A stretch of DNA of 64,000 nucleotides from Negaprion brevirostris (taxonomy: Eukaryota), in NCBI GenBank assembly GCA_030324005.1, contig JARDVH010000031.1, positions 38,349,680 to 38,413,679 of the forward strand. Direction: 5' to 3'. Positions 1 through 31,639 of this stretch are shown here, piece after piece; position 1 is the first letter of the stretch; the number at the start of each line of letters is the position of its first letter. The position numbers and the translations under genes are program-made. Under the pieces are notes generated by a model. It was given only the letters and a program-made list of their open reading frames with translations. It searched no databases and was not told the origin of the DNA.

Positions 1-110
1 ACAAGGACCCCGAGGTCCCTCTGCACCGTCGCCTGCTGCAGTTTTTCGCCACGTAAGTAATAGTCCTTCCTACCATTGTTCCTACCAAAGTGGACCACCT
101 CACACTTGCT
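1..110 (-). mobile_element. CR1-like LINE RT fragment
   Basis: ACAAGGACCCCGAGGTCCCTCTG...CCAAAGTGGACCACCTCACACTTG resembles the antisense of the CR1 RT C-terminal region. Confidence 0.55.
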
Positions 111-519
111 TTTGAGGAGTTTTCAACAAGTACTGTTGGGCCTTTTCGCTCAGCTTGAAATTTATTAATTAAATTTGATCATTCTACGTTCATTGCAGAA
201 GAACTTTCATTTTACAGATTTAAAATACATATTAGCACATTGTATTTGCGATTGAGATAAAGTTAGTAGTCTTTCACTTGTGTGAAGGTATTTTGGCAAA
301 ATGGTTGTTGGAAATATCAAACCTTTTCTTGTTGGACATAATACTGAAACAGTTCTATCCTTAATCTGGCTCTGACTGACACTAAAGCTAGCATTATATT
401 GCTTCCAAAAATCCGACTCTTGTATGTGCCTGCTTCTACCTCTCTTTACTCTTCAAGACACTCTATGAAACCTATCACATTGATCAAGCTTTTGGTTATC
501 TGCTTTGATGCTTCTTTAC

Positions 520-1980
520 CCTAGAATAGTCACAATGCAGAAAGATGTTATTCAGTGCATTGTATCCTCACTGCTTTTCTACAAGAGCAACTCCACCATT
601 CCAGTCCCTGCGTTTTTGCTGTGGTTTGGTAATTTTGTTCTTTTCAGTTAATTATCCAATCCCTTTTCAAAGCCATGATCCGCCTCTAAGGGAATGGATT
701 CATTGCGTGGGGAAAAAAAACTTTCCTTTATGTGACCTTTGCTTCTTCTTTCATTCATCTTAAATCATTGTTTTGTGGTTCTTGATCCTACCACTAAGGA
801 AACAGTTTCTTCTTATCCACTATGTGCAGTCCCCTCATGATTTTAAACAGCTCTGTCAAATCTCCGCTAAACCGTGCCTTCTTGAAAGAGAGCAGCAAGT
901 CCCTGAACCCTGGAAACACTCTGTGCAAATCTTTTCCTGTGCCCTTTCTAAGGCATTCACATTCCTAAGTGTAGTGCCCAGAAATGGACACAAATCTCAA
1001 ATTGAGCTTGAACCAGCATTGAAAAATATTCACCATAAGTTTCTTGCTTTTGCACTCCATGCCTCTATTTATAAAGATAATTCCAAATATCTTATTAACA
1101 GTGTTCTCAACCTGCCCTATCATCTTCAACACCTATAGCCAGGTGTCTCTTTTCCTGCACTCACATTTGTAGTGTACTGTTTATTTTATATTACCTTTCC
1201 TTATTCTTCCTACTAAAATGTATCACTTCATACTTCCCTGCAATAAATTTAATCTGCCATCTGCCTGTTTTACCATGTCCTCCTGAAGTCTATCACCATC
1301 CCCCTCATGGTTCGCAATATCCCCAATTTTGTATCATTTATAAATTTTGAAATATTGCCCCCACACCCAAGCCAAGTTCATCAACATAGATCAAGAAAGC
1401 AATGGTCGTAATACTGATCCTTGGGGAAGCCCAGTATATACCTTCCTTCAATCTAAAAAAACAATTGTCGCCACTGCTCTTGTTTCCTGTCATTCACTGA
1501 ACTTCAAATTCATGCTGTCACTGTTCCTTTTATTCTCCAGACTTTAACTTTGCCAACAACTCATTTATATGGCACTTTATCAATCGCCTTTTGAAAGTCC
1601 ATGTACATCACATCAACCCCATTACCCAAACAACTCTTTCTGTTACACCGTCAAACATCTCAAATCAAGCTAGTTAAATACATTTAATCTTGAACAAATC
1701 CATACTTGTTTTTCTTTAATCCAAGTGATAATTAATTTTGTCCCAGGTTATTGTCTCCAAAACCTTCCCCACCATCAAAGTTAAACTAACTGGCCTGTAT
1801 TTGCTGGACTATCTTTAAACTCTTTTTAAATCCTGAGTGCAACATTTGCAATTCTNNNNNNNNNNTCCTCTGGCACCTATATCTAAAGCAGACGGGAAGA
1901 TTATGACCAATGCCTCCACGATTGCCACGCTTACTTCACTCAGTATCATCAGATGCATTTGATGGAGTCATGGTGACTTG
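520..1980 (-). mobile_element. Decayed CR1/HER1-like LINE, 3' part
   Basis: Antisense CR1 RT motifs (TTTTGAAAGTCCATGTACATCACATCAAC = VDVMYMDFQK; AACTGGCCTGTATTTGCTGG = PANYRPV-like), many stops. Confidence 0.75.
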
Positions 1981-2643
1981 TATAGCACAAGGTCAAATCT
2001 TATTTACTGTTGCTCATGTGCAGCACCTTGGGAAGTTTTACCACACTAATGATACTATATAAATATCAGGGCTGCAGAGTTTGGTTATGTAGTACTAGTG
2101 ATTTTGGAACTCTGAACTCTAGTTTTATTAGCAAATTACATCCATGGCATTTCTGCACACAGCCAGTGTGATGTGTATGAAATTCCAATTTGTTAAGTAC
2201 AATAGGGAGTGTAAGCAAGATAGAAATATGCAGACTAGACAGATTATGATGTTAGCCAGCATCTGACACCGATTTAGCAATAGATGTGCCATTTTAGACC
2301 TTGCTATTCTTATTAATGCCCTCTTTGAAACACACCGAGATACCCCATCAATGTAATTTATAGATCATTACGTCTTACAGGTCAATTGCTGCTGGCTGAT
2401 CGAATTTCTGGAAGTGCTAAGTGGTGTTGCACATGGGGCGAATATTACTGTTAACTGCAAGGGCTCTGAGTACACCACATCATGGGCAATAGTAGCAGTT
2501 TCCTTGGGTTGGAACATGAAGGGAGATGATGCAGAAGCAGCAATTGAGAAGACAAGCTATATGGAGAGGGAGGAGGGAAGGAAAGTAGCAAGAGGTATTT
2601 ACACACCTGCAATCCTCCCCAGCCCTCATCCTAACTCTAGTTA

Positions 2644-2766
2644 TGATGTGGAGATGCCGGCGTTGGACTGGGGTGGGCACGGTAAGAAGTCTCACAACAC
2701 CAGGTTAAATTCCAACAGGTTTACTTGGTAGCACGAGCTTTTGGAGTTTCGTTCCTTCTTCAGGTT
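2644..2766 (-). mobile_element. Penelope-like terminal repeat with decayed hammerhead core
   Basis: Same repeat as at 4267-4351 and 56770-56877. The minus strand reads CCTGAAGA-AGGAACGAAACTCC-AAAAGCTCGTG, with GAAA mutated to AAAA. Confidence 0.7.
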
Positions 2767-3439
2767 TGGCAGAGTAGTGTGTGCCAATTTACCTTCTCTT
2801 AACCCCTCTACTCTCTCAGAAACTAGAAAGTAACTTTGAAAACTGCAAGAGAAGATGACCAATGTATACGATAAAAACGCAGGGACAGAATTGGCAAGTT
2901 TACAGCTGGGACAATAAGTTCACACCCAAGATCTCACAGAATGCAGTGAGGCGACAAGGATTTGTTCAGAAGTTATAAAGTCTTTACAGACTCAATGATG
3001 AGACATAACCAAGGACCAATCAGATCCATTCCAGCTCCTCAACTACTGTGCAGTCTGACCGCACCGAGGGGAAGATCCGGGAATGACAATCCCACAAAAC
3101 ACCGTGAACAACTAAAGAAACATCCAGACAAGGTTACCAGGATCACCTCTCTGCTTTATAGACTCAGATTCACCAGTTACATACACTTACGTAATGGTAA
3201 CTAAACATGAATATTTAAATAGTTAGACTTCTTTGGAAGGTGGGAACTTGAATTTTAAAAAGAAAGGGGGAAGTTGTATTGCCTTTAAAGAGAAAGCAGC
3301 ATGACATTAGTGGAAAGGAAGTGTGTCATGTAATCCAGTCTCACTTTGGCCAATGGATAGAACACAGCGCACACAGCTCTGCTGCTGAGCTCAAAGCTTT
3401 CCAGCCATGTTTTGGGTAGAATTGGTTTTGATTTTGGTC

Positions 3440-3545
3440 CTGTTAATTGAGTAAGGAATGTTGGCCAGAATACAGCGAGAACACTCTGGTTATCAAATAG
3501 TGTTGTGGGATCTTAACTGCTCAGTGAAGGAAATTGGTTTCAATT
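3440..3545 (-). mobile_element. Possible Deu-domain SINE remnant
   Basis: AAGGAATGTTGGCCAGAATACAGCGAGAACACTC...CAAATAGTGTTGTGGGATCTT resembles the antisense DeuSINE core (from recall). Confidence 0.4.
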
Positions 3546-4266
3546 TAACTTCATTTAACTTCAAATCAGTCAAGGATCAGTGAAAAACATCCACTTATTC
3601 CTTCCCCAGCCTGCCCACCCCAAACTGTCAACCAGCTGACAGTCAGCAAGCAGGCAGCACTCTGACAGTCCAGCTCTGAAATCAAATATCAGCACGACCG
3701 GAAGCTCCCTACCGCAGTTTGTAGAACTTACACCGATAGGCACCCTGCCCTTCTCCTCAAACCCAGAGAGAAAACACTGACAGCACCACTGAGGCCTTGT
3801 AGTGAACAGTTGATACATTGCTGCATTCTACATGTTCTGATACAAACACAATACATCCTCTGTCTCCTACAGCTCAGCATGACACTGAAGGGTNNNNNNN
3901 NNNACTGAGAGGAGGCAAGAATCCTTAACCAGGGACTGTTAATTGGAGCTGAAACAAAAGAATAGGGAGGCATTCAGCCCCTCAACAGTGTTGCATCACT
4001 CAATGGGAACACAGCTGAAGTGAACCTCAAGTCTATTTTCTGACATTGATTCCATTTCCTTTGATTCACTTCCCAATGACCGTGCATCCCCCCCCACCCT
4101 GCGCACACACACACGCCCTGCGCGCGCACACCCCCACACACACCCAGCACACCCACACCCACCCTGNNNNNNNNNNNNNNNNNNNNNNNNNNNNNNNNNN
4201 NNNNNNNNNNNNNNNNNNNNNNNNNNNNNNNNNNNNNNNNNNNNNNNNNNNNNNNNNNNNNNNNNN

Positions 4267-4298
4267 CTGATGAAGGAGCAGTGCTCTGAAAGCTTGTG
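4267..4298 (+). ncRNA. Minimal type I hammerhead ribozyme motif (Penelope type)
   Basis: CUGAUGA-A-GGAGC(AGU)GCUCU-GAAA-GCU-U-GUG: intact core boxes, 5-bp stem II and palindromic AGCU stem III; the 5' strand of stem I lies in Ns. Confidence 0.55.
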
Positions 4299-4351
4299 AT
4301 TCCAGATAAACCTGTTGGACTTTAACCTGGTGTTGTGAGACTTAATACTGT
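4267..4351 (+). mobile_element. Penelope-like terminal repeat, 5' side hidden by N gap
   Basis: Inverted counterpart of 2644-2766 (AAACCTGTTGGACTTTAACCTGGTGTTGTGAGACTT). Confidence 0.75.
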
Positions 4352-4740
4352 AACTCTAGCTAAGTCTGGATCAGGTGTCTACAATTTACCAAGGAGATGG
4401 CCAAAGAACACTACTTTTTCTTGGGAACTAGACCTGGAGTTTTTGAGCAGGGTGAAGACAACGTTGTCAGTGTCTATAATGGTGACTGTGGCACTTAGTT
4501 TTTCCACAACCAGCTCTGTCCAAGCTGGAAAAAGAATGACATGGCTAACACCTGATTCACCTTCCAGTGATGGATGGGAGAGGTGATGGTGCTTCTGTCT
4601 GCCAGAAGACGGGACTTCATTGTGTTTCTCTGAACAGTGAGAAGCAGGAGGAGCATGCATCTTGCTTTGGAAGGAAAGCGGGCTTCCCTATGGCGCAGGC
4701 TGCCATCTGCTGCATACATGTGGCTTTAGGGACATTATGT

Positions 4741-5224
4741 CTGGATTTTCATCATCAGGCAGGCAGTGGGAGTTGAAGAAATTCCCGGCTTGGTTCACCT
4801 AGGAGAAATTGCCCAAAAAGATGGGTCTTAATTGTGGAATTGTAACTGTGATTGAGCTGTAATCAGATCAGCTGACCTGGGAATGTTTGAAGGCAGCCCA
4901 GGTGACCCAACAGCCTAATGGATTTTGAGGTTTTTAACCAAGCATTCATAATAAGGGCTTGGCTGAGAGCCCAGCAATCTTATTAGACTGCTAAAGCACC
5001 TGACCTTTCGAAGAAAACATTGCCATGATTCATTAAAAACCTGGTCTGACTCCATGAAATAGGCATGGTCTGACTCCATGCCTATTCTCACAATGGAATT
5101 GGCCAGGTCAGAAGTACAGGAAATAGACTTCGAAACCCTGGGAATGGGGTCAGGAATTCCTGAATCAGGTCTGGCCACCATTCCTAAAGGACTTCTACAT
5201 CACCCTGACTGGGTGAAAATCCAG
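4741..5224. mobile_element. MITE-like insertion nested in the Harbinger transposase relic
   Basis: Terminal inverted repeats CTGGATTTTCA (4741-4751) / TGAAAATCCAG (5214-5224); transposase motifs resume on both sides. Confidence 0.55.
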
Positions 5225-7278
5225 GCCTACATTTCAACTGTGAGCTATTCCAAAACCATAAACTCAGGGGTTGTGTGCCATGCTCAGCACATCATGTCGC
5301 TGAATGCCTACTGTCCTGGAAATAGTCATGTCGCATTTATTCTATGCCAGTTACAACTGTCTTTCAGCCATAAGGTCAAAACATAGGTGGGCAACATGAG
5401 TTACTACTTTATACCTGGCTAATGAAACCCCTTTACAAACTAACCACATATGGCAAGCTTGCTACCGTGGGAAACATCATTGGACAGAAGAAGGAGTGCT
5501 GGAGCATTGGGTATGCTGTCTAGATTACTGTGAAGGTGCCCCCCACTATTGACCAGAGCAAGTATCCATTTTGTAACGGATGGTTGCATACCTTATAAGT
5601 TGGTCATCATGATAGCACAACTCTTGCCACCAAGAAAGTACTTCAGAAAGAGAAGCAAGAGGACAGGATGGACTGTGTATGAACATGTAATTCAACTTCA
5701 GTTCTTGTGAATAATGCCACAAATCTTCATTTTTATAACAAGACACCCAAATACTCCACAAAATATTCAGCTAATTACTTTTGTGCATTTCCTTTATGTC
5801 TGCCTTCTATGTCCCCATGACTATCCTAGTGCTTCAGTATGGTGTTACCTCAGTGACAGTTGCATGAGCGATGGAAGGTAGGAAATTGCAAACAACCTTG
5901 GAGGGCAGTTTTGAGCAGCTCTGGGCCATGATTCAGACTGCACTTCCTCAGCAATTTGGGCTGACTGGCTTACAAGGCAGCAGCAAGAGCACGGGCAGGC
6001 TGACAGCAATAGAAGTATAAATGCTGTCATCCTGAGAGAGTATAGCACTTGTATACTCCCAANNNNNNNNNNNNNNNNNNNNNNNNNNNNNNNGTAAGCT
6101 TCTGGAGGACATATTGCCAGACAGTGAGACTCTGCAACCCCCTTGAGCACTGCTGTCTGCAGCCATGTCGGCAGCACTCTGAGCCTGCATGGCACCAAAT
6201 TGGACTTGTTTGGCAATAAGCTGAGATTTCATAACTTCAGTTTGAATTTCCACTGTCGTACTGACATGTTGGGGGCTTCTGTTTTGCTGCAATGGAAGTC
6301 AAAGCATCAGACATCGAACTATGGTTGGGTCTAGAATGTTCTCATGGAATTTGCCACTACTTCCACACTGGAAAGAATGGGCTTCAAGCTCTGCACAAAA
6401 CTCATGCCAAGTTGGAGTCATACTTCTGCATATTTCTTAAGGGGTGACAGCCTTCCTGGCAGGTTTGCTAGTGCTTCAAGCGTTTCTTTCTGCGTGCCAG
6501 CTAGCCTTGTTGGATGAGGGTGAAGCATGACTTGAGAAGCTGGGCCATCAGGAGGAACATAATGTCATCCTTAGTGGATTAAACCCTGCCACAGGCCCCT
6601 GCTTCAGTAACAACTCTTCCACTGGTGGCAAGCACTGTCTCCTCCATGGAGATCAGCACATGCAGTCTTCCCACACTCCCTTCTCACCCCACCCTGGCAG
6701 GTGCCACCTTGTCCTAAGGAGAGAGTAGGAAGTGTGTCTTTGAGTGTGGTGCAAAGTGTTTGGAATTGTGTATGCCACAGTTGAACAGCTGGCAGAATGT
6801 ACAAGTTGTGAGATGCAAGTTTGCATCTGCAAGCTGCACAGTCACTTGGAAATATTTAGCTGTAACTCTCAGGCTGTGCTGCACTTCAGTCTGTGCTATG
6901 CTGAAAATTTGCAGTTCTTCCTCTTGGTTAGCTAGCACTTAACCTGTGGATTTCTTCTATCTTTACAGTGTGGTTCTGTAACTCCACTTCTTTTGTCGTT
7001 TTTGCTGCTGGGTGTTCCCATTGTTTGTACAGAGTACCACTTTCTGCCCTTCCTTCTTTTACATAATCAGTTCATATCCTTAACCAATTTTTATATGCTG
7101 TATACATATTTCAGCTGCATTATTTCAAATTATAAGCACTGCACAGTTACATTATTTGAATTTAATTGTGATACTTTTAAGTTAATGCTGTAGCTTATTA
7201 AGTTGAAGTTTGTTTGTGAGATTACAACCAATTCGCAACATTTTGGTGAAACTGCATTTTTTTAAAAAATACATTTAG

Positions 7279-7467
7279 ATGTGAAGGTTACATGGTATAG
7301 TAAGCAGAAGGAGATCAAACAATCGCGATTCTTCAAGATGGTTCAGTTTGAAGATACCTACCAACTGGAAGTTGCTGAAGCATACCCGGAGGATGAAGGA
7401 ATGTATAAATGTGTAGCATCCAACTCCGCTGGAGAGGTGTCGTGCACTGCTAACTTAAAACTGGAAG
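7279..7467 (+). CDS. TTN: Titin exon, C-terminal part of Ig I15 (human exon 44 equivalent)
   Basis: tttag|AT GTG...CTG GAA G|gtaaat, 189 nt; DVKVTWYSK...RFFKMVQFEDTYQLEVAEAYPEDEG. Confidence 0.95.
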
Positions 7468-8192: not shown

Positions 8193-8520
8193 GATATAGA
8201 AAGATCGATTACATCAAAGACATCATATGTCTACGTTTGGCTCTTCTGAAGAAGCAACATGAGTCCAAATGCCTTTCTTTAGTGTGTGCATTTTAAGTAG
8301 GCAAGTGCACATTGGGCTGGCAAGCATATTATATGCAATAGTGTCTGTTGGTCCCAAACCAAAGATCCAAGGATTGCATAATGGACAGTTAATCAAGCCA
8401 AGAAAAGTTCTGGTGCTTCATTTTGATAGTCTAAGAACAACAGTATACTTACTACTGATGCAAGAATAAAATTAGGATTTTCTTGGTATAGTTCTTGTTA
8501 ACTGACTTAGCAATTTCAGC
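8193..8520 (+). pseudogene. TTN: Novex-1-like pseudoexon (decayed Ig I16)
   Basis: Strong acceptor tttcctttccag| at 8192. Peptide VHIG...IVSVGPKPKIQGLHNGQLIKPRKVLVLHFD resembles Novex-1 VHNG...VSGIPKPEIQWFHNQQLILPTKDVVFHFE. Frameshift, loss of core Trp and stops; 3' end approximate. Confidence 0.7.
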
Positions 8521-8997: not shown

Positions 8998-9882
8998 ATT
9001 ACAAAGTGCAAAGCATAGATAGTCAGAGCATAACAACTTCTGGAAAAGCTGTAGAGGAATCCATCGCTTCAAAGACTTTTGAAGTATCAGAAATGCATGT
9101 GGAGTCCCCTGTGACCTTAACGCATACAAAGAACTATACCAAGGAAATCAGTTTGCAGCAAGAACATACATACAGTGTTCAGACATTTGAAAGTATTTCC
9201 ATGAGATCATCAAGCAAAACAGTTTCCTCTGGAAGTTGGGAAGAATGCCAAAAAGTTGCCAAGACGGAAACAGTTAGAAGTGGCTGTCAAAGTTCGCCAA
9301 AAATCTTGCAAGATCTGAATGATGTCACAGTTTTGTTAGGTCAAACTGCATCTCTAAAATGTCAAATTCTAGCATTGCCAAGACCTGAAATAAAATGGTA
9401 TAGAGAAGATGAAGAACTTGTGGAAGTTAAGAGAATTAAAATTGTTTCTATAACAGAAGATGAAGTTTTGACATCATCTGAATTAATTATAGAACAGATC
9501 CGAGAAGAAGACACAGGAATTTATAAATGTAAAGCTACAAATCCTTTTGGCGAAGTTAAATGCAAAGCCGAAATAATTGTTACTGCAGCCAAACCTGCCC
9601 TTGAGGTTCCCCTGATTCTCCTTGAACTTAGTGATCTAAAGGTGAAGGTTGGTCAGATGGCACAGTTCATCTGTTCTTTTAGCGGGGAATCTTTTACAGA
9701 GGTCATATGGAGTCACGGAAGCACAAGACTGGAAGAATCACGAAGACTGAAGATTTCTCAGAATGGAAATGTTATGTCTCTCACTATCCTAAATGTGCAC
9801 TTAGAGGATCAGGGACAGTACAGCTGTACTACAAGAAATGAAAGTGGTGAAAAGAAGACTACTGCTATACTAATTGTAGAAG
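8998..9882 (+). CDS. TTN: Novex-2-like cassette exon: unique linker plus two Ig domains
   Basis: ctcag|AT TAC...GTA GAA G|gtggtt, 885 nt open. N-terminus VQSIDSQ..YSVQTFES and last Ig (EESRRLKISQNGN..DQGQYSC) resemble human Novex-2. Confidence 0.88.
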
Positions 9883-10173
9883 GTGGTTGTTTATTATTTT
9901 ACTTACAAACAGCATCCTGATCCATCCACTTCATGTTTCTGTTCCAAAATAAGTTTAGTACCTTTTTAAGAAGATCCTAAATTTACTTATTAATAGTAAA
10001 ATGTTCAGTTTAAAATGTTTAGCTAGTGATTTATACAAACCTTAACACTAGACACACCAAGTCTGCATGAATTATTGCAAACATTGCCTCTTGCTGTTAT
10101 AATTTTTTCAAGTATTTACTTTGCTGAAATTATTAAATCAGTTAACATTTATCCTAATTTTATTCTTGCATAG

Positions 10174-10689
10174 CTGAAGAATCAAAACCCAAAACAGGTG
10201 CAAAAATCCCCACTGATAGCAGTTCAGATAGCACAATAACTGAACAAAGACCACATATCACACCTGATAGCACACCAGAAGTACAAAAGAAACCATCAAG
10301 TCCACCACCGTCTTCAACCAAAAGGCCAACTGGAAAAGAGAAGCTACGAAGCCGAGACTATTATCCTGATGTGGTGCCCTTTGATGAATTGATAGACACT
10401 GGAGCCATAGCACCGATGTTCTTAGAAAAGCTACCTCCAGAAATCATTGTACAAGATGGAGAAGATGTTTTGTTGTTCTGCATCGTAAAAGGTGTACCAT
10501 CACCTTGTGTACTTTGGCTGTGCAACCAGCGCATAGTTGAAGAATCTTCATTGTGTTCCATTAAACATGATGGGTTACTATGCAGTTTAAAAATGCAAAA
10601 TGTCTGCCAAAGGCACAGTGGCACTTATTCATGCAAAGCGGTTAACTCTGCTGGAGAAACAGCGTGCAACACTCTACTTAGAGTGACAG
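10174..10689 (+). CDS. TTN: Additional Novex-like cassette exon: P/S/T/K-rich linker plus one Ig
   Basis: ttgcatag|CT GAA...GTG ACA G|gttggc, 516 nt open, phase 1-1. I-set motifs APMFLEKL, GVPSPCVLW, HSGTYSCKAVNSAG. Confidence 0.82.
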
Positions 10690-11112
10690 GTTGGCAATTG
10701 CATGCTTTGGTCTTTCCCAATGTGACTTTATCATGCATCTCAGCACATCCTATGGAAAGATTCTTTGCAGAAAATCATCTTGTTGACCTGTGGACTATTG
10801 CATTCATTTTTCCTGAAATCAGATTAGGCATGTTGAGGCATGTTTGTTGTTTCGATACAGAGCAAAATGGAGAATGTTTTTTTTTTACAAAACCCTGGAT
10901 TGCCTGAATTATCTTTGTGATTCAGTCAACCATTTGCTTGGTAAATCCTTCTAGAAATCACAATTTGCGAATATATTTAATTTTTTGCATGTATGTTTTG
11001 TATGTCTTTTCATATTAAAAGTATTTTGAGTTTCATTTTCCTTTTTGCATATTTTGTGGGGAAAAACAGTGATACATTCTTATAATTATATTCAATATTC
11101 ATTTTCATGCAG

Positions 11113-11160
11113 AAAAGATTCAAGACAAGATTGAACAACAGATAGAAATGGAAGTGAGAG
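11113..11160 (+). CDS. TTN: Small linker exon (human exon 47 equivalent), EKIQDKIEQQIEMEVR
   Basis: ttcatgcag|AA AAG...AGA G|gtaata, 48 nt; resembles human HERIEQEIEMEMK. Not in the ORF track. Confidence 0.92.
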
Positions 11161-12413
11161 GTAATACTTTTATTATTATTCAATAAACAATTATTTAACT
11201 TTGCATTTAACGCTAGGTTTGAACAACTGCTATCAACTTTGGTATTTTGCCATCATGATAAGTTGTGCTGTGTTACAAAGTATAAAAAAATTACACGTTG
11301 TCAATGCCAATCTGATTTACAAACCCAACTTCTTGTTGTCATTCTCATTTTAACCTAAACAAAAAAACCCTTTAACATCAAAAATATTTACTTTGCAGGA
11401 AATGTTATTTTTTTAACCAATATTAGTTCCTCATATTTCAGCTGAATTTCAATTTGAAATTGCTCATTGTCATAATTGATACACTGCAAAAGGGATATAT
11501 AGAGCTACATTCAGTAAGTTGTATTCTAACATGAATTATGTAATGAGAAGTGGTTAAATTAACTCTCAGCTATCTGTCGTTCAATGATTGAATGCTGGAA
11601 ATATATATTTTAGTGGTGATTACTTGAATCAGTACTTTTGTTGCTCTCGTTTACTTCTGATTTTCCAATAAATTTTTTGATAAAGAACTCACAGGCAATA
11701 TTTCATAAAGGAACTTTGACGAGGGTCTTTTCCATTTTTAGCATTCATTTTCTTCCATTTTCATGACATCAACCTATCCTCATGTATTTACACTGCCTTG
11801 CAGATAGCAGTATGTGTTCACGTACGCTGGCATTTTTTTGCATAATATTGTGAATCTAGCAACTATATTAGTTCGAATAAACGCCTTCTCATGCAAATTG
11901 GAAGGATTACAGTTATGGATGAATTTATTTCCATCTATTGATTCCAATTCTAAAAACAATCTCTATCAAACTGGCTGAAAAATTTACCTGTTGTTGAAAA
12001 AGGATCAGAAAGGGCGTTTATTCTGCTGTCTGCAAGTCAGGTAAGAATTGTAATAACCTAGATATCCCCAAATCACAGGGACAGATTTTACATTCAAAAA
12101 TAACAAAATTCTTTCATGAGATCACTTTATGCTTTTTTCAAAATATACACTCTAATTTGATTTTTGAGAAGAAATTGCAACAGTCTGAAGAAGGAACAAA
12201 GAACGAGCGATTTTCCTGCTCAGAATCTTTAAAAAGAAAATGGTCTTGTGTTTATTCGAACAAATATGGTGAGTGAATTTTTTACAATATTTGTGAAAAA
12301 GCTGATGCATTAAGTTCATCATTTCATCATATTACAGATTTGTTCTAAATTTAATTCTTATAATGTTTTGAACTGGCTTTTAAGAAACTTCATACAAATT
12401 TTTTTTTTTGCAG

Positions 12414-15400
12414 AGTTGTTTTTTGGTGCTGGGACAGAATATTTGGAAAATCGAGAAAACCTGCGTGATGCATTTTCAGATGCCGAAGATTATTTAGATC
12501 AGGGAATGGTTTCTGCTGATCGTTGTGCAAGCAGAACATCTTCTATAAGTTCCTGGTCTGAGAATTTCAGGCCATCTTTCACTGAAAAGCTCAAATTCAA
12601 ATCTGTAATGGAAGGAGAACAAGCTATTTTTAAATGCAAGTTGGTTGCCAGCCCAGCACCAAAAATTGCATGGTTTCATAACAACAGACCTATATGTAAA
12701 GATTCAAGAAGGATTATTAAAATAGAAAGCGTAATGCACATTCACAACTCAAGTTTGGAAATCAATAATGTAGAAGAGAAAGATTCAGGGAGTTACAAAA
12801 TATTTGCAATAAACTCTGAGGGCTCAACAGAGGCAACTGCATCTTTACTCATTGCACTTAAAGAAGAGCAAAGTGCAAACTATCTGTGCTTTCTGAAAAG
12901 ATCAGAGATGGTTCACGAAAGTATAGACTCATTAGTTAAGAAGCGGGATGCAAGACTTAGAGTTGATCTCAGACATGTTGGATCACCCTTTGACAAGAAA
13001 TATCAGGTTCAAGGAGCTTTGCGTAAACATTCAAATTCTAAAAGCAAACTGATGCGTACAATGTATTTTGAAAGAACACCAATAAGGCATTATCTGTATA
13101 AGGACAGATCTGCAGAAATACAGTCATCTAGATTATCAGGGAGGGTTCTCGATAAGGATAGTTTGATTGATGAAGATATTAAAATTAAAATGCAGCTTTT
13201 ATTATAATACTGCAAAAGTGGGAAAAAAGAACTGAATCGAAAAATTCTTCAACAGAATGTGCAATTTATCCATCTCATCCTATTTTAATTAAAAAAATAA
13301 AAAATTTGAACAGAAAAATAAAGANNNNNNNNNNNNNNNNNNNNNNNNNNNNNNNNNNNNNNNNNNNNNNNNNNNNNNNNNNNNNNNNNNNNNNNNNNNN
13401 NNNNNNNNNNNNNNNNNNNNNNNNGCAGCAGAAGTATGGGAGATATTGATCACATGGATTTTGAACCTAGTAAGTCTTATTTTGTGCAAGGACAGGAGCT
13501 GTCTTCTGGTGACTATTTCCAGAGAGAGTCTCCTGAATTTCAGTGTCGAATGGAGCGGGTATCAGGACTTTCTCCGCAGGAAGTAGAACCACAAAGAGAC
13601 TTGAAAGAAAATTTTACTGAAGAATCTTCCAAAACAAAAGTCATAAAGTCATTACCAGAGCAATTTCTGAAAGGTAGTTTAATTCAAGAAACAGAACAAG
13701 CACAGGAAAGTCAGTGCTGGTTGGTAGAAGAGGAAACCGATGAATGCTATTTTCAGAAGCAATTTGATGAAAGAGAAGAACCACAGAGTGAACCTTGTGA
13801 AGAACCACAGACACTCTCTGACCAGTGGCTTGGAGGCTTTATTAGTATGCAAAGGGATATAATAACAAAGGGGCCTGGAGAGTTGTTTGAGCCTCCCACA
13901 CCAGCAGTTAGAGAAACACCAATAATTCAAGAAGCAGCAGAGCCTGAAGCCAGTGTTGAATACCCAGAGATTTTACAGAAGGAAAAAGAATTCCATCTGT
14001 TTGACAGAACACCAATAAAGCAAACTCCAGTGGAATTAAAAGAATGTCCAAGTAAATCTGAGTTGAAGGAAGACCATGAGATATTTTCTGACCAGTGGTC
14101 TGAAAGTTTGGTAAGTGTGCAGAACTCATTAGCAAAGGAAACTGAAAAGAACCAGTCAATGTTTGACTATTCCAAAGCAACTGAGATAAGTGGATCCAGA
14201 TTTGGTGAACAAGATGACATGGTGAAAGAATCTACACAAAAACAGATGCCTTCTCCTTTAATAGAAGAAAAAGAAGCCTCCACTCTTTTCAGAACATCAT
14301 TTGATGATAACACTACGGAAATAAGCAAAATTTCATGCAGAGTTGAAGACAAAGAAGACCCCAATGCACCTTTTGACAGATGGTCTGGGAATGTCTTAGT
14401 AAAACAGGGGTTTGGATTTGACCACATAATCATTGATCCAACAAAATCCACTTTCGAGGAAAGTGAGATCAGTGTCTCTAAAATCAACCAAAAAGCAGCA
14501 CAATTTGAAAATGAAGATTATACCCAGATGATAACATCCTCTACTTTGCCAGAGAAAATAGAAACCTCAGAATTTGTCAGTTCCTTGGTGAAAGAAATAC
14601 CAAAAGAGGTGAAGCATATTCCATTTAAATCTGACAAGGTGAACTATGGGACAGCTGTGGAACATTGGCCTGAGAGATTCATTAGTGTACCCAGTGACTT
14701 ACTAACTCAAAAACCTGAAGATGGTCATAAAATATCTGACCAACCTGCATCAGCAGTCAGGCAGGCAGAGGTAGTTAGTATGTCCAAAATCAGGCATAAA
14801 ACCCCACAAGATGAAGCACAGTTTACAGATTCCAACCATGTTGTGAGACATTCTCCCCTGATAGCAAAAATAAAAGAAACATCAACTTTTACTAGAACAG
14901 TGATAAAACAAACTCCAGAGGATATAAAAGAACCTCCATATAAATCTGTTGTTGAAGAAGAACATGAGTCACCTTTTGATAAAAGGCGAGGAAGATTTAT
15001 TTGTGTGGAGAAAGACTTTCCAGCAACAAAATATGAAGATAGCCACAAAATCCCACTGACTGATAAAGGCAGATCAGCAGTAGATCATGCAGAGGTGATT
15101 GATTTATCTAAACTCAGTGAAAAAGAGCAGCATAAAGGCAAGGTTGAAGAATTCACTACAATACTAAGACCTTGCATACCAGAAAAGAAAGAAACTTCAA
15201 TATTTGTCAGTTCACCCATAAGTAAAAGAGCAACAGAAATAAGAGAACCTCCATATAAACCTGAAGTGAAGGATAGTCACCAGATACCTCCAGAGCAATT
15301 TGTCGGAGGTTCTGTTGGTCTGATGAGGGATTTTGTAACTGAAAAGTGTGAAGATACCAATGGAACAACCAATAGGCCCATACCATTACTCAAACAAATA

Positions 15401-16490: not shown

Positions 16491-16598
16491 GTAAGATTCT
16501 TAATGCTTTATTTATGAAATTATTTTCTTAAATATGTTTTTGCAACATATTTTATGAATGATGACTTCAAATTAATGAAAAATATTTTTATTTTCCAG

Positions 16599-25687: not shown

Positions 25688-26850
25688 AGGAAATCAGCTG
25701 CGGTAAAATCATTGAGCCAGTCCCTCTGACAGCAAGTATGGGCTCAGGATCTGCCTTTCACCCTAAAAGCAGGACCCTGAAGCCCACAGTAAAAAATTGG
25801 CCCCACATTCAGTTTGGGTTGCTGGATAGTGATCAGGAAAATAAACATTTTTAGATTTTGTGTTGCCATAGCCTGGAGATGCTGAAGTCAATTTTAGCAT
25901 TTCATTGCTCCCTAGTTAAGAGAGGTTCAGCATTAATCAGGTTTTGTGTAGCACAGGGCTAGACAAATGTTACACTTGTCTCCTGAACCACTGGACCAGA
26001 TCCTGGCTTAGTAAATTGTTATCACATAAACCAATATGGGTTTGACAACATTGAGTTATCAGATGATTGGCAAGGTTTACAAATGAAAACTGTATTATTT
26101 TTCATTCTGAAACTTGGCAGACTATGAAATTATCAAACAGATAGTGTTATTTTTAAGGTAAAAGTAGGAATGCATTTTTCTCTTAGTTTGCTTGTGGTAT
26201 GACTTACTGCTCAAATGTGATTTATTTGATTGAAACATTTGTATTTCTGTGATGGAATAAAATTTATATTAGAAATTACTCAAGCCTTTAGAACATTTCT
26301 AGCATGCAAAATAACTTTGTATACTGATAATTAATACCAACATGACTACCTTGTAATGGAATTTTGTGAAGTTCCTATGGCAAGATGGTTACTGAGCTAG
26401 TTTTTACTCATTTTGATTCAGAAATGGAGAATATTGATGTGATGTAAAATCATTTTTATCTGTAAATAGTTACTGTGGCTCTTCAGAAGATATATATTTA
26501 ATATCTACAAATCTCAATAAATTTTAAGTTAAATGGTTTGATTTTGACTTGAGAAATGAAGGCAAGTTTTTCTTTATTTTGCTTGTAAGCTGTTCAAAAT
26601 AGCTTGAGGCAAAATTTCTCTCCTGCTTTGGACTAATTCTATTCACAATTAATGGATCTGATTGTATGTTTTAGTTAAAGATAAATCTTTGAGATGAACT
26701 ATTACAGAATTTTATTCTTTTGATGCAATTTGAGTTTAGCATGCTAAGTTATGTGATTAATTTTTGTGATTATTTTCAGTTTCCAGTATTAAGAAACATC
26801 ACTCACCATCAACACGCATTCTAAATTTAAGCATCTTATTTCTTATACAG

Positions 26851-29800
26851 AATTTTCTAGCTCTGTTACCGTCGCTGCTGAAGATAAGAGGGAAGATTTC
26901 TACAGTAGTGACCTCCATGTGTCAGATAAAACATTTGAACTCAAGCCTGAAACAACACCTCTTTCCAGCATTTCAGACATAGAAGCTAAGCCTTTAAAAG
27001 CAATACCAGCATTTGTTAAGAGCATTTCCAGTATAGAGGTAGTTGTGGAAGATGTAGCTAAATTCACTGTGACAATAACTGGATTCCCCAAACCCTCTAT
27101 TCAGTGGTTTCATAATAGTAAAAAATTGACTCCTTCATCAAATTGCAAATTTATTTATGATAGGGATGAATATAGTCTAATTATACCTTATGCAAAATTT
27201 ACAGATGAGGGAGAATATACTTGCTCAGCTGCCAGTGTGCTTGGAACAACTTCATGTAGTGCATATCTGAAGATCAAACCAAAAGATGGTATGGGAGGGT
27301 TTAGGACATCAGCTTCAAAACCTCCAGTTGCAAAACCGACAGATAAAAAAATAAGCAAAGAGGCATTCTCAAAGGAAATTATGTCAATGATTCCAACAGA
27401 AACCATACATACCCTTAGAGGTCAGCCACCACATTTTTTCAAAGAACTTAAATCTGTGCAGTGCCCAGAAGGTCTGCCTGCTAAATTTGACTATGTAGTG
27501 AAAGGTGAGCCAGTGCCAGAAGTGCTTTGGTATAAGGGGAATGATCAGATTCACCAGAGTGTGCACTGCAATCTTAGATCCAATCCTGACGGCTCTGGTT
27601 CATTAACTATCAATAATGCACAAAAAGAGGACAGTGGTTTATATTCCTGCAAAGCTTTTAACTCATTTGGTGAAACAACTTGCACTGCAGAGCTAATTGT
27701 ATTCAGTGGCACTTCTGCTACTGTTGAACATAAGAAACAGAAAGTAGTTCAAAAGCACCATACCAAGTCATACACAAAGACTGTTGGTGATCATGCCACA
27801 GAGTCACGTTTATTCATGGTAAAGTTACCTGGTGAGGCTCAGGCTGAATTACAAGACAGAGATCAACTGGTGTACACAATAGCTTCTGAAGGTAAACATT
27901 CTGTTCACAGTGAGCAGACCGGCACATTGCATGATGTGACTGTTTCTGCTGCAGAAACAGCAATTGCAGGAAAGAGACAGATAATAATGCATTCACAAAA
28001 CACACAAGAAAGCCTAGGTTATATAGAGCAACATTATGAACCAATTAAAAGTCCACCAATGTTTGAATTATCAAGCACTGAAGTACAATTAGATTCTGCC
28101 CTTTGTTTGCCCACAATTGAGGAGAAAACTTTAATTCCAAAGGAAGGCAGTTTTAGTATCAGAGATTCATCTACTATAGATACTAAGACAAAGACAAAAG
28201 AAACAAGCATCTTGTCTGTGGAAAAGGATCTAATTCCCAGCTCCAGGACTGTTGTAGAGAAAGAAATACCAAAAACCGAGCCAGCATACTCTTTGCACAG
28301 CTACAAGGTTGAGGGAGATCAAGGACCACCCAAAGAGGCATTGTTTGGTTTTGAAATTCCTGCATTACAGAAATGTGAAATACAAAAAGAAAGAAAAATG
28401 GAGGCTCATACAGCTGTAGCAATGGAACAGAATAAAATAAAACATGAAATGGCAGAAGACATACAAATGTTAGATGAAGCAAGAGAAGCAAAACCGTTTA
28501 AAGAATTGCCAAAACCATTCTTGATGACTGTCACTGAAAGCCAGAAATCATTAGCAAAGGAATCTCTGTTCAAAGTACCTAAAGCTGATACACAACAAGC
28601 TTCAGTTATGAAAGATAAACTTGTGAAAACTGCTTTAACTGCAGAAGAAAAACAACAGCTCACGAGTGAACACACCAAAGCAATATTTGGGTTAGACAGT
28701 GCAATCTCATTAACATCAAAAAAAGAAGAAAAGACACCTTTGCATTTACAGATTGTTAAGGGACAAGACACTCTGCCCAAAGAAACAACATTTACTTTTG
28801 AAGTACTGGCAGATGAGAAAGCTGACCTCAGAAGGAGCCCAATATTGCTGCATTCATTACTATCAGAAGAACAGCATCTTTTACCTCACGAATACACAAC
28901 TCCGTTACCTGATGTAAAAGATGCCGTCAGAACTAAACCTATGAAAGAGCATATGCCTATTTTATCTCCTCATTATATGGAGACTACATGCATTTTTGAT
29001 AAAGAAAGGATGCAACCTGATGAGAAACCAGCATCTCATGTTGCAGCACACAAACTTGAGAAAGCATACAGCTATTCTGCTGTTGTGGAAGAGAAAGCAG
29101 AATTGTTAGCTGAACAAACTAAAACACTTGAAAAGGAAGTTCCAAGTGTACAGGCTGAAGTTAAAAGTGAGCATTCAGCAGAAGAATACTGCCCAGCTGT
29201 AACTGTACCAATGCACCTATCAAAAGAGAAATGTTTTACTGTTGAAGAGAAAGAACAACGTGCAGTAATAAAGAAGTTGGATGACACAGTTAAACAGTTT
29301 GGTACTACAACAGAGATTAAGATCGTGGAAGATGGTTCACTTGCCATTTCTGAAGCCGTAAATNNNNNNNNNNNNNNAGATAAATATGAATCAAAGCTCC
29401 CTTCAGTTTCTGTGCAGGTTAAAGATAAGGCAATGCCTATAGAAAGCATCAAGACTTTAGAGGCTGCAGAAGAGGACTTTGCAGCAAGAATCCAAGAGGG
29501 TCAGTCAGTAAGATTTCCATTGCTGCATGAAGAAAAACAGCTCATTGAAGAGGAACATTCTTCAGGAATCAAGAGATCAGAGCAAACCATTCTGAAGGTG
29601 GAGAAACAACCACATGAAACACAATTTGCTCAAGTAATACAAGAAAGTAATGCATTCCATAAAGAAACAGCATTCAAGGCTGAAGTTCCTAAAGCAGTCA
29701 CCTTAGATGTTAGTACACAGATTAAGAAAGCATTGCAGTCAGCTTTAGCAAGTGAACATTGTGTCCTTTCTTCTATTTTACTAGGTAGCATAGAACCAGT

Positions 29801-30717
29801 GAAGATTAAGGAATTAAAAGTTCAAAAAGAACCTAAATATAATTTATATACATACCAGATTACTAATATCAATCCTCCCATAGACATAACTCTGTCATTT
29901 GAGGGAGAATACCCTCAGAAAGCTGACTTAAGAAAGGAATTAATAGCTGCCTTCCATGCCATTACTCATGAACAACAGCAGGCTTTGCTAGCCGAGGAAT
30001 TGAATATCATTCAGCTGCCAACTGATAGGTTAGAAAAATTGTGCATCAGCATGGCTCCTGCAAAAGAGATGATCTCACCTGAAGCTGTCAACATTGCTGA
30101 AAGCACCTCTGAAGTGGCTAGGTATGGAATGCATATGACTGAACAGAAAATTCAGACAGCAGAGAAGACAGTTGTTCAAGAAATGATAGTAACCACTGAA
30201 TCAGAGGATTTTATTCAGAAGTTTAAATCTGTAGAGACAATTAAAAAAGGGGCAGTCGTTAGTCACATAAGAGATGTTGGTGGTGTGATAATTACTAAAG
30301 ATGCCCTTTCAGCACCTGTCCCAGTAGAGCAACCAACAGAAATTCTTAAAAAAGAGAAGAAAATTGAGGAGCTTATAGTTACTAGCATTTCTAAACCGAA
30401 AAAGCCAGATGAAACACCGATAAAAATCACCAAAGACATTCCAGTAATTACTAAAGGGCTTACAGATATCATTGTAGATGAAGATAGTGATGTAAAATTA
30501 AGCACAGTCATTACAAAAGTTAACAAGGTAAATTGGTATATCAATGGGAAGAAAATCATTTCAAAAAATGAGTTCAAATGTTTACAAGAACTTGACACTT
30601 ACTCACTTATAATCAACAATGTACAGAAAGAGGACCATCAAGGAGAATATGTCTGTGAGGCACTGAATGAAGCTGGAAAAGCAACTACTTCTGCAAAACT
30701 CACAGTTATTATAAGAG
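26851..30717 (+). CDS. TTN: N2B exon (I24, I25, N2B unique sequence of ~910 aa, I26); human exon 49 equivalent
   Basis: tatacag|AA TTT TCT AGC (EFSSS)...ATA AGA G|gttgga, 3867 nt open (15 N). PPHFFKELK, NPDGSG, RIQEGQSVRFPL, EDHQGEYVCEALN. Confidence 0.96.
28275..30000 (+). repeat. Cryptic ~74-aa (222-nt) periodic repeat in the N2B unique sequence
   Basis: KE/IE anchor codons at 28332, 28557, 28779, 29001, 29223, 29439 and 29661. Confidence 0.75.
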
Positions 30718-31639
30718 GTTGGATTATGGGGATAAAATCTTTGTTAATACGAACTTCAAAAGCTAATATATTGAACTAACTATGTAGTTAACTTTTGATA
30801 TTAGTTTCTCAAAACTCAACTGAGTTTATGCCAATAAATTAACATGACTAAATATTTCCTTCCCTCCTTCCTTCCATTCCTGTCTTCCTTTTTTACCTTC
30901 CTTATTTTAAAAGTAAAAGCATTATCTAGTTATCAATCTCTATACCGTGCAGTCAAAGCCTGATCAGACCGCATCAGTTGATTTCACAGATATTTTGCAT
31001 CAAAAATTTCAAAACTTAACATCATTAATTTAGGAAACCTAATCTGGTTTTGTATTAATTTAAATGAAAATTGCATTCTGGCTTGATGCAATCTTCAGAT
31101 GCNNNNNNNNNNGTTATGTTTAAACTTTACTGTGACTATATTATTATTTTTTGGTCTCTTATACTTTAACATTAACTTTTGATTAACATCAGCCATGGTG
31201 CTTTAAGTTTCTACTAACAGAATTAATATTGCTTTCATCCCCATATCCATATTTGAGGAGTTGCTAGATTTTTTATCATTATCATCACTTTGTCATAACG
31301 AAAATACATTTCTTCCTAAAACTTAATATCACCGTTTCTGTCATTTTTTTTTCTCTAGGAAAACATTTCATAGACGTACCAATTATTTGCATGTTTCTAT
31401 GGACACCACACATGTCAATAAATGTTGAATTTCATTCGTTGAAGTCTTTCATTTGTTGAGCACAACCACTGGTCAGCTAACATTTTTAACAATCATTTCT
31501 TCTCCACAGTCACTCCTTGGATTGTTAGTTACTGTCACCCTCCCTCCTCCATCTATGAATTTCAGGGGGTCACATGCGAAAAGAATTACAGTTAACTATT
31601 GCAGTATTTTCACATATTTTCCTTTAATTTAAATCATAG

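Follow-up and report, generated by a model that had tools for sequence, protein, structure and literature searches.

Introduction

Does the titin gene hold, between exons 44 and 47, only the two exons known as Novex-1 (exon 45) and Novex-2 (exon 46)? Exon numbering in comparative titin work follows the human gene, and two comparative papers on this region, one on eight bony vertebrates (Chen 2018, PMC5852582) and one on the elephant shark (Hanashima 2025, PMC12241362, as far as the available part of its text goes), name only Novex-1, Novex-2, Novex-3, and exon 48'. Exons 45 and 46 are the only ones reported between exons 44 and 47 of the eight bony vertebrates, and a human-referenced mVISTA comparison brought out one new conserved block, between exons 47 and 48 (Chen 2018, PMC5852582).

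The question is raised by a stretch of 64,000 nt (the window), in which an additional exon, labelled exon X here, lies at 10174..10689. The window would derive from a chondrichthyan titin gene, judging from its Ig domains, which are 76-88% identical to those of Heptranchias perlo in a per-domain comparison. All features described below lie on its forward (+) strand. We consider exon X to be titin's third internal alternative exon of the Novex type, normally skipped and present in the ancestor of jawed vertebrates, with a probability of about 0.6.

An intact exon with a Cys-rich Ig domain

Exon X comprises 516 nt (172 codons, phase 1-1), delimited by the acceptor ...ttcttgcatag/CTGAAG at 10174 and the donor GTGACAG/gttggc at 10689/10690. 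Its translation is stop-free and includes KKPSSPPPSSTKRPT; an open frame of 171 codons would arise by chance at about 3e-5 per site, given the stop frequency of the window's non-coding DNA. Coordinates, splice sites, and open frame all agree with the original prediction of an intact 172-codon, phase 1-1 exon between Novex-2 and exon 47. As expected of a Novex-type exon, X lies between exons 44 and 47, is symmetric and in frame, and combines a unique stretch with an I-set Ig.

The encoded segment opens with a low-complexity linker (residues 1-58, 10176..10349), delimited by composition and probably disordered. Its richness in P, S, T, and K, already pointed out in the original prediction, reaches 62% over residues 1-60, and residues 1-78 are just 35-42% identical to gar and birds. 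Immediately before the Ig domain stands the motif YYPDVVP (10359..10379), which is conserved across orthologues: eight of the nine named ones carry YYPDVVPC and the remaining one YHPDVVPC, the window itself reading YYPDVVPF.

The rest of the exon encodes a 93-residue I-set Ig domain (10410..10688; Pfam I-set on residues 85-170, E 1.5e-16), which had rightly been called Cys-rich, as its eight Cys are the top count among the 54 Ig domains compared. These include CysB, CysF, and CysG (C102, C153, and C164) and the conserved C111 and C136, all five present in each of the eight complete named orthologues. AlphaFold2 gave a pLDDT of 98 for the Ig domain (50-row alignment) and of 36.8 for the full exon (four sequences). 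In Foldseek, the Ig model matched titin I67-I69 with a TM of 0.95 (rmsd 0.8 A to 2RIK), and C102, C153, and C164 aligned with the Cys of domains 3 and 5 of 3B43, i.e. I67 and I69, so that strands B, F, and G each carry a Cys where I67 and I69 have theirs. The domain therefore shares with I67 and I69 (PMC5766482, in the portion of that paper available) the same fold and three Cys at equivalent positions. In contrast to them, it has two more invariant Cys (C111 and C136) and one extra A-A' residue, it lacks the Asp usually found in DxGxY, and its disulfides are predicted ones.

Flanking exons, a decayed Novex-1, and an extended Novex-2

Upstream of exon X lies the constitutive exon 44 (7279..7467), which encodes the 3' part of Ig I15. 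It measures 189 nt between AG and GT, as in all eight species of Chen 2018 (Table 1, PMC5852582), and is 72% identical to bat titin. Downstream, the 48-nt exon 47 (11113..11160) matches the bat sequence that follows exon 44; the frog exon 47 also has 48 nt (Chen 2018 Table 1, PMC5852582). The intron 46 sizes in that table appear to be 3,044 nt for human and 1,898 nt for chicken. All four joins across the region (44-47, 44-X-47, 44-Novex-2-47, and 44-Novex-2-X-47) are in frame. Further upstream, the 7.2 kb preceding exon 44 (window 1-7278) contain no match to bat exons 42-43, and intron 43 is therefore longer than the 0.6-5.0 kb of bony vertebrates (PMC5852582).

Novex-1 survives in the window as a decayed pseudo-exon (8193..~8470), with an intact acceptor, a frameshift near the 5' end, a TGA at 8260, and a TAA at 8467; no 3' part or donor is recognisable in this relic, and stops occur in all frames. 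A tblastn search with the plover Novex-1 aligned to 8224-8460 (42% identity, E 1.9e-9) across the in-frame stop. The H. perlo gene model likewise traverses its own Novex-1 remnant in two frames. The dead copy in the window contrasts with the description of Novex-1 as the best conserved Novex exon (Chen 2018, PMC5852582) and with the elephant shark, for which the available part of the report names Novex-I, II, and III and places Novex-I in skeletal muscle cDNA (Hanashima 2025, PMC12241362); the segment so named (cDNA LC422595) may be true Novex-1 or exon X. Exon X is not a displaced Novex-1 or a Novex-1 orthologue: the two Ig domains are 35% identical, the real relic sits at 8224-8460, and the plover model has both exons.

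Novex-2 (8998..9882) is 885 nt long, compared with 552-582 nt in tetrapods (Chen 2018, PMC5852582), about 100 codons above that range because an extra Ig (9294-9584) precedes the canonical Novex-2 Ig (9606-9881). This extra Ig has 97 residues, is 76% identical in H. perlo, and is missing from the gar and bird models. With Novex-2 itself located there and the Novex-2 and X domains forming separate clades in the Ig tree (see below), exon X is not its orthologue either.

Exon X is shared by sharks, gar, and birds

Orthologues of 172-173 codons were found in Heptranchias, spotted gar, and six birds, along with a partial one in a tortoise (Gopherus); both sharks have the 172-codon form, gar and birds the 173-codon one. 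Among proteins of 301-2000 aa, a search with the shark exon kept 5 of 573 candidates, of which only H. perlo XP_067843003.1 (87% identical) is an orthologue, and the homologue search at 94-300 aa gave none among 43. HMMER over 1.84 billion representatives placed a single orthologue among its best 150 matches, a 322-aa orphan from a penguin that is 51% identical over 172 residues and scored 173 bits, versus 70 for the highest-scoring non-orthologue in a set of 155 proteins. Those 150 matches are mainly giant multi-Ig proteins (longest 7,964 aa); just two of them have an exon-44 orthologue, and exon X is in neither. By comparison, all seven proteins retained from 175 candidates in a search with the crane region were orthologues (penguin, kittiwake, hummingbird, bustard, H. 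perlo, spotted gar, and the partial Gopherus), and cluster look-ups added crane, plover, and three further bird-like sequences.

The gene models concerned are XP_067843003.1 (Heptranchias perlo), XP_015214368.1 (Lepisosteus oculatus), A0A452HGF2 (Gopherus), and, in birds, XP_075611892.1, XP_054066394.1, XP_071603330.1, XP_010125343.1, KAM6259273.1, and KAM6398072.1. Across the nine named species the records are called MLCK-like, myopalladin-like, MyBP-H-like, twitchin-like, VSIG10-like, or Ig-like domain protein, and none is called TTN. Within searches whose range ends short of full-length titin, the only annotations containing the exon are thus orphan models under other gene names. In all eight complete named models, which are predictions, exon X comes directly after Novex-2 sequence; in the plover model KAM6398072.1, Novex-1, Novex-2, and exon X stand intact in that order. 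In the tortoise, the model departs from exon X halfway through the domain and passes into Novex-3 sequence, probably through a prediction error; even so, X is placed upstream of exon 48.

No orthologue was retrieved from mammals, amphibians, teleosts, lungfish, coelacanth, or galeomorph sharks in searches covering proteins of up to 2000 aa or the best 150 HMMER matches; full-length titins exceed these length limits, and this result is not evidence of loss. The ESM Atlas yielded generic I-set clusters only. A word search of read sets found 17 rows from 10 studies sharing exon X words (11 RNA or guessed RNA, shares 0.04-0.23), which we do not count as expression.

The X Ig of the window is 61-66% identical to those of birds (four of the six bird models compared) and 62% to that of gar, while the Novex-2 Ig of the same proteins is 52-57% (birds) and 57% (gar) identical to its window counterpart. 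The nearest non-orthologous domain among 47 reaches 41%. A tree built from 54 Ig domains places the seven X domains in a clade of their own with 100/100 support and a long stem, in which gar and birds group together and the sharks stand apart. When the sister of this clade was sought among 30 of the 54 Ig rows, it was Novex-3 Ig5 with support of just 64/63; Novex-1 (p-AU 0.40) and the Novex-2 Ig (p-AU 0.28) were also compatible.

Since orthologues occur in shark, gar, and birds and the Ig domains form one clade, exon X predates the split between sharks and bony vertebrates, and, on these sequence comparisons, the common ancestor of jawed vertebrates already had it. That split is dated to about 450 My (PMC12241362, from the part of the text available). 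The same comparisons indicate that the exon is under protein-level purifying selection over shark-gar-bird distances. The original prediction of a further Novex-type exon holds in that X is separate from Novex-1 and Novex-2 as well as from Novex-3 by clade, identity, and position, and it has to be widened in that the exon is old and spread beyond sharks. A shark-specific exon is ruled out by the gar, tortoise, and bird orthologues.

The donor, its TGCATG element, and the downstream intron

The 5' splice site of exon X reads GTTGGC and is followed by TGCATG at +10 (10699-10704; whole element 10690..10704), just where the original prediction had placed it. None of the 33 other Ig-exon donors of the window has this hexamer within +20, and one of the 33 has it within +50. 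The donor had also been called weak. With six of nine consensus matches it is moderately so, and the stronger claim of an unusually weak donor is ruled out by the other donors: 10 of the 33 likewise have six matches and one has five, five score lower with a matrix trained on this locus, and GTTGG also begins four of them.

A second TGCATG, a candidate Rbfox-type element, lies 110 nt upstream of the acceptor (10064..10069), and the 423-nt intron between exon X and exon 47 (10690..11112) holds four GCATG, at 10700, 10828, 10838, and 10987, where 0.44 would be expected at the window-wide rate (a post hoc count). Exon X accordingly has the (U)GCAUG in the proximal downstream intron that characterises Rbfox cassettes; sites downstream of a cassette favour inclusion (PMC4541041, in the section of that paper available).

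All 11 database sequences that reach the end of exon X run through the donor, none being spliced to exon 47, and continue with GWQ[LM]H[AV], which is what GT TGG CAR NTG CAT G would encode and which is compatible with conserved GTTGGCARNTGCATG. Beyond these six residues the tails diverge. They end at 20-58 codons in the database sequences and at 72 in the window, where the read-through frame stays open over 10690..10907 (stop 10905-10907) and is followed by ATTAAA at 11014. One 36-residue form is common to many bird models, and the best match of bird tails to the shark intron, a weak one (p 0.02-0.27), is in a shifted frame. As far as can be told from amino acids, in which third codon positions are not visible, this pattern fits a conserved donor and Rbfox element better than a conserved peptide. 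Outside this genome, conservation of TGCATG would follow from the amino acids only; a metagenome scan for orthologue DNA confirmed none of its 170 pattern matches. Past exon 47, an AATAAA at 11182-11187, 22 nt beyond the donor, is a possible intronic poly(A) signal or a chance occurrence in AT-rich DNA.

The main alternative to a cassette is that exon X is a composite terminal exon, whose acceptor is used and donor ignored, with stop and polyadenylation in the intron, so that a Z-disc-anchored mini-titin shorter than Novex-3 would end in the X Ig. We find this improbable, if well worth keeping in view. It would account for the uniform read-through, for the 72 open codons and ATTAAA of the window, and for the shared bird tail, and it has a parallel in the truncated Novex-2 transcripts retaining intron 46 in human, frog, and chicken (Chen 2018, PMC5852582). 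However, conservation of the tails between birds and sharks ends after six residues and their length varies (20-72), the weak match of bird tails to the shark intron is frame-shifted, the models are orphan predictions requiring a stop codon for closure, and a canonical phase-1 donor stands exactly at the domain end, as in the 33 other Ig exons. Use as a terminal exon and use as a cassette may coexist. The model for such a terminal exon is Novex-3 (exon 48), an alternative terminal exon whose fifth Ig, also Cys-rich, is the nearest in the window to the X Ig at 41%; unlike exon X, Novex-3 follows exon 47, spans several kb, and encodes six Ig.

It is more doubtful still that exon X is a conserved, essentially untranslated element, present only in unproductive intron-retaining transcripts and serving either to decoy the splicing machinery or to attenuate full-length titin. 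Novex transcripts with retained introns are common (Chen 2018, PMC5852582), GCATG is clustered in the downstream intron, and no titin isoform with X in a long context was among the retrieved proteins (one of the best 150 HMMER matches has X, the 322-aa orphan). Against this, conservation is protein-like, with the Ig core, the five Cys, and YYPDVVP kept while the linker drifts, and length changes in whole codons (172 versus 173). Last, a dead or recent functionless duplicate of a neighbouring Ig exon (a Novex-1, Novex-2, or Novex-3 domain), for which one could cite the dead Novex-1 next door, two features that the X Ig has in common with the Novex-1 Ig (NQ following the core Trp, SCKA.NSAGE at the C-terminus), and the p-AU of a joint clade with Novex-1, is very improbable and largely refuted by the orthologues, given a frame intact in all eight complete named ones over three vertebrate lineages, the long stem branch of the X clade, and identities to other Ig of at most 41% (35% for Novex-1).

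Other features of the titin window

Novex-3 appears to be split by a 107-nt phase-1 intron (16492-16598, GTAAGA...TTCCAG) directly after its second Ig; exon 48 is a single exon in eight bony vertebrates (Chen 2018 Table 1, PMC5852582). Within 13195-13424, the Novex-3 frame that begins at 12414 meets its stop (13205-13207) in AT-rich sequence shortly before an N gap (13325-13424); the cause may be a misassembly, another intron, or a genuine interruption. The N2B exon frame (26793-30779, about 1,310 codons, with one 14-base N gap) is longer than the 2.5-3.8 kb of the eight bony vertebrates (PMC5852582). Middle-Ig exons (37190-63954) occur in repeated six-exon sets, as in elephant and whale shark (PMC12241362, in the part of the paper available).

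Discussion

We favour a third internal Novex cassette. The bat isoform joins 44-47-48, as do all species tested by Chen 2018 (PMC5852582), so that splicing there skips the region; we read exon X as a minor cassette. Default splicing would join 44 to 47, and inclusion of exon X, alone (44-X-47) or behind Novex-2 (46-X-47), would insert in frame, between I15 and the exon 47 segment, an extensible linker of about 78 residues with YYPDVVP(C) and one Cys-rich I-set Ig. Because it lies upstream of the choice between exons 48 and 49, exon X can enter Novex-3, N2B-containing, or N2A titin. Inclusion is probably under the control of Rbfox-type binding to the UGCAUG just past the donor. With this module inserted, the proximal I-band would become longer and gain a redox-sensitive domain and possibly a docking motif; the CysB/CysF/CysG triad permits force-triggered disulfide isomerisation (Giganti et al., 2018, PMC5766482, from the part of the paper available).

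The symmetric phase, the in-frame joins, the maintained length of 172-173 codons, and an Ig identity above that of the Novex-2 Ig all argue for a cassette, as does the adjacent Novex-1, which pictures what decay looks like in the same locus. On the other side stand the 11 database sequences running through the donor, the fact that this donor is not unusually weak for the gene, and the upstream TGCATG, which by the same Rbfox rule would favour skipping. Heart RT-PCR in chicken and frog, with primers for 46-49 and 44-48, is also reported without any product containing such an exon (Chen 2018, PMC5852582), chicken and frog being species whose copies of X are not confirmed here. The junction of Novex-2 to X in all eight complete named models, predictions only, bears on whether Novex exons are mutually exclusive; co-inclusion of 45 and 46 has been reported (Chen 2018, PMC5852582).

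Exon X is close in design to its neighbours. With Novex-1 (exon 45, 372-390 nt) it shares the exon 44-47 interval, the phase 1-1 cassette design, and a unique N-terminal stretch followed by a single I-set Ig, but it lies behind Novex-2, has 516 rather than 375 nt, and belongs to a separate clade. With the adjacent Novex-2 (exon 46) it shares phase 1-1 and a linker plus Ig, and truncated forms retaining intron 46 are reported for the latter (PMC5852582); X is nevertheless a separate exon with its own clade, and its Ig evolves more slowly and is Cys-rich. Exon 48' (Chen 2018) shows that a conserved exon of this region has been overlooked before, although it differs in lying after exon 47, in its 85-100 nt, and in being frameshifting.

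A literature search, with subscription journals mostly outside it, found neither a description of exon X nor any fourth Novex name, and no such exon is mentioned in the available portions of PMC7370890, PMC5874998, PMC13649281, PMC4465641, PMC4720518, PMC4541041, and PMC5766482. A prior mention is possible; no naming paper was found, and the database records are misnamed, none as a TTN exon, which agrees with the earlier suggestion that the exon is undescribed.

Exon X is thus of old standing in vertebrate titin and apparently without a name. As an element, an alternative Ig exon is of an ordinary kind, and we claim no new mechanism. With stronger conservation than Novex-2 between sharks and birds, exon X is a missing piece of the ancestral gene, and it explains a set of misnamed orphan gene models. 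Novex cassettes are individually dispensable, Novex-1 being dead here, which bears on the reading of truncating variants in exons 45-46. In chicken and gar, exon X offers a direct test case for what internal Novex exons do. In a scenario for which we see about even chances, the ancestral jawed-vertebrate titin would have had three internal Novex cassettes (Novex-1, Novex-2, and X), later sorted by lineage: birds would have kept all three, these sharks would have retained X while inactivating Novex-1 and gaining an Ig within Novex-2, and mammals would have lost X. A module 450 million years old, controlled by Rbfox and sensitive to redox state, would then be missing from the human-based map of 363 exons, and it may also form the end of an isoform shorter than Novex-3.
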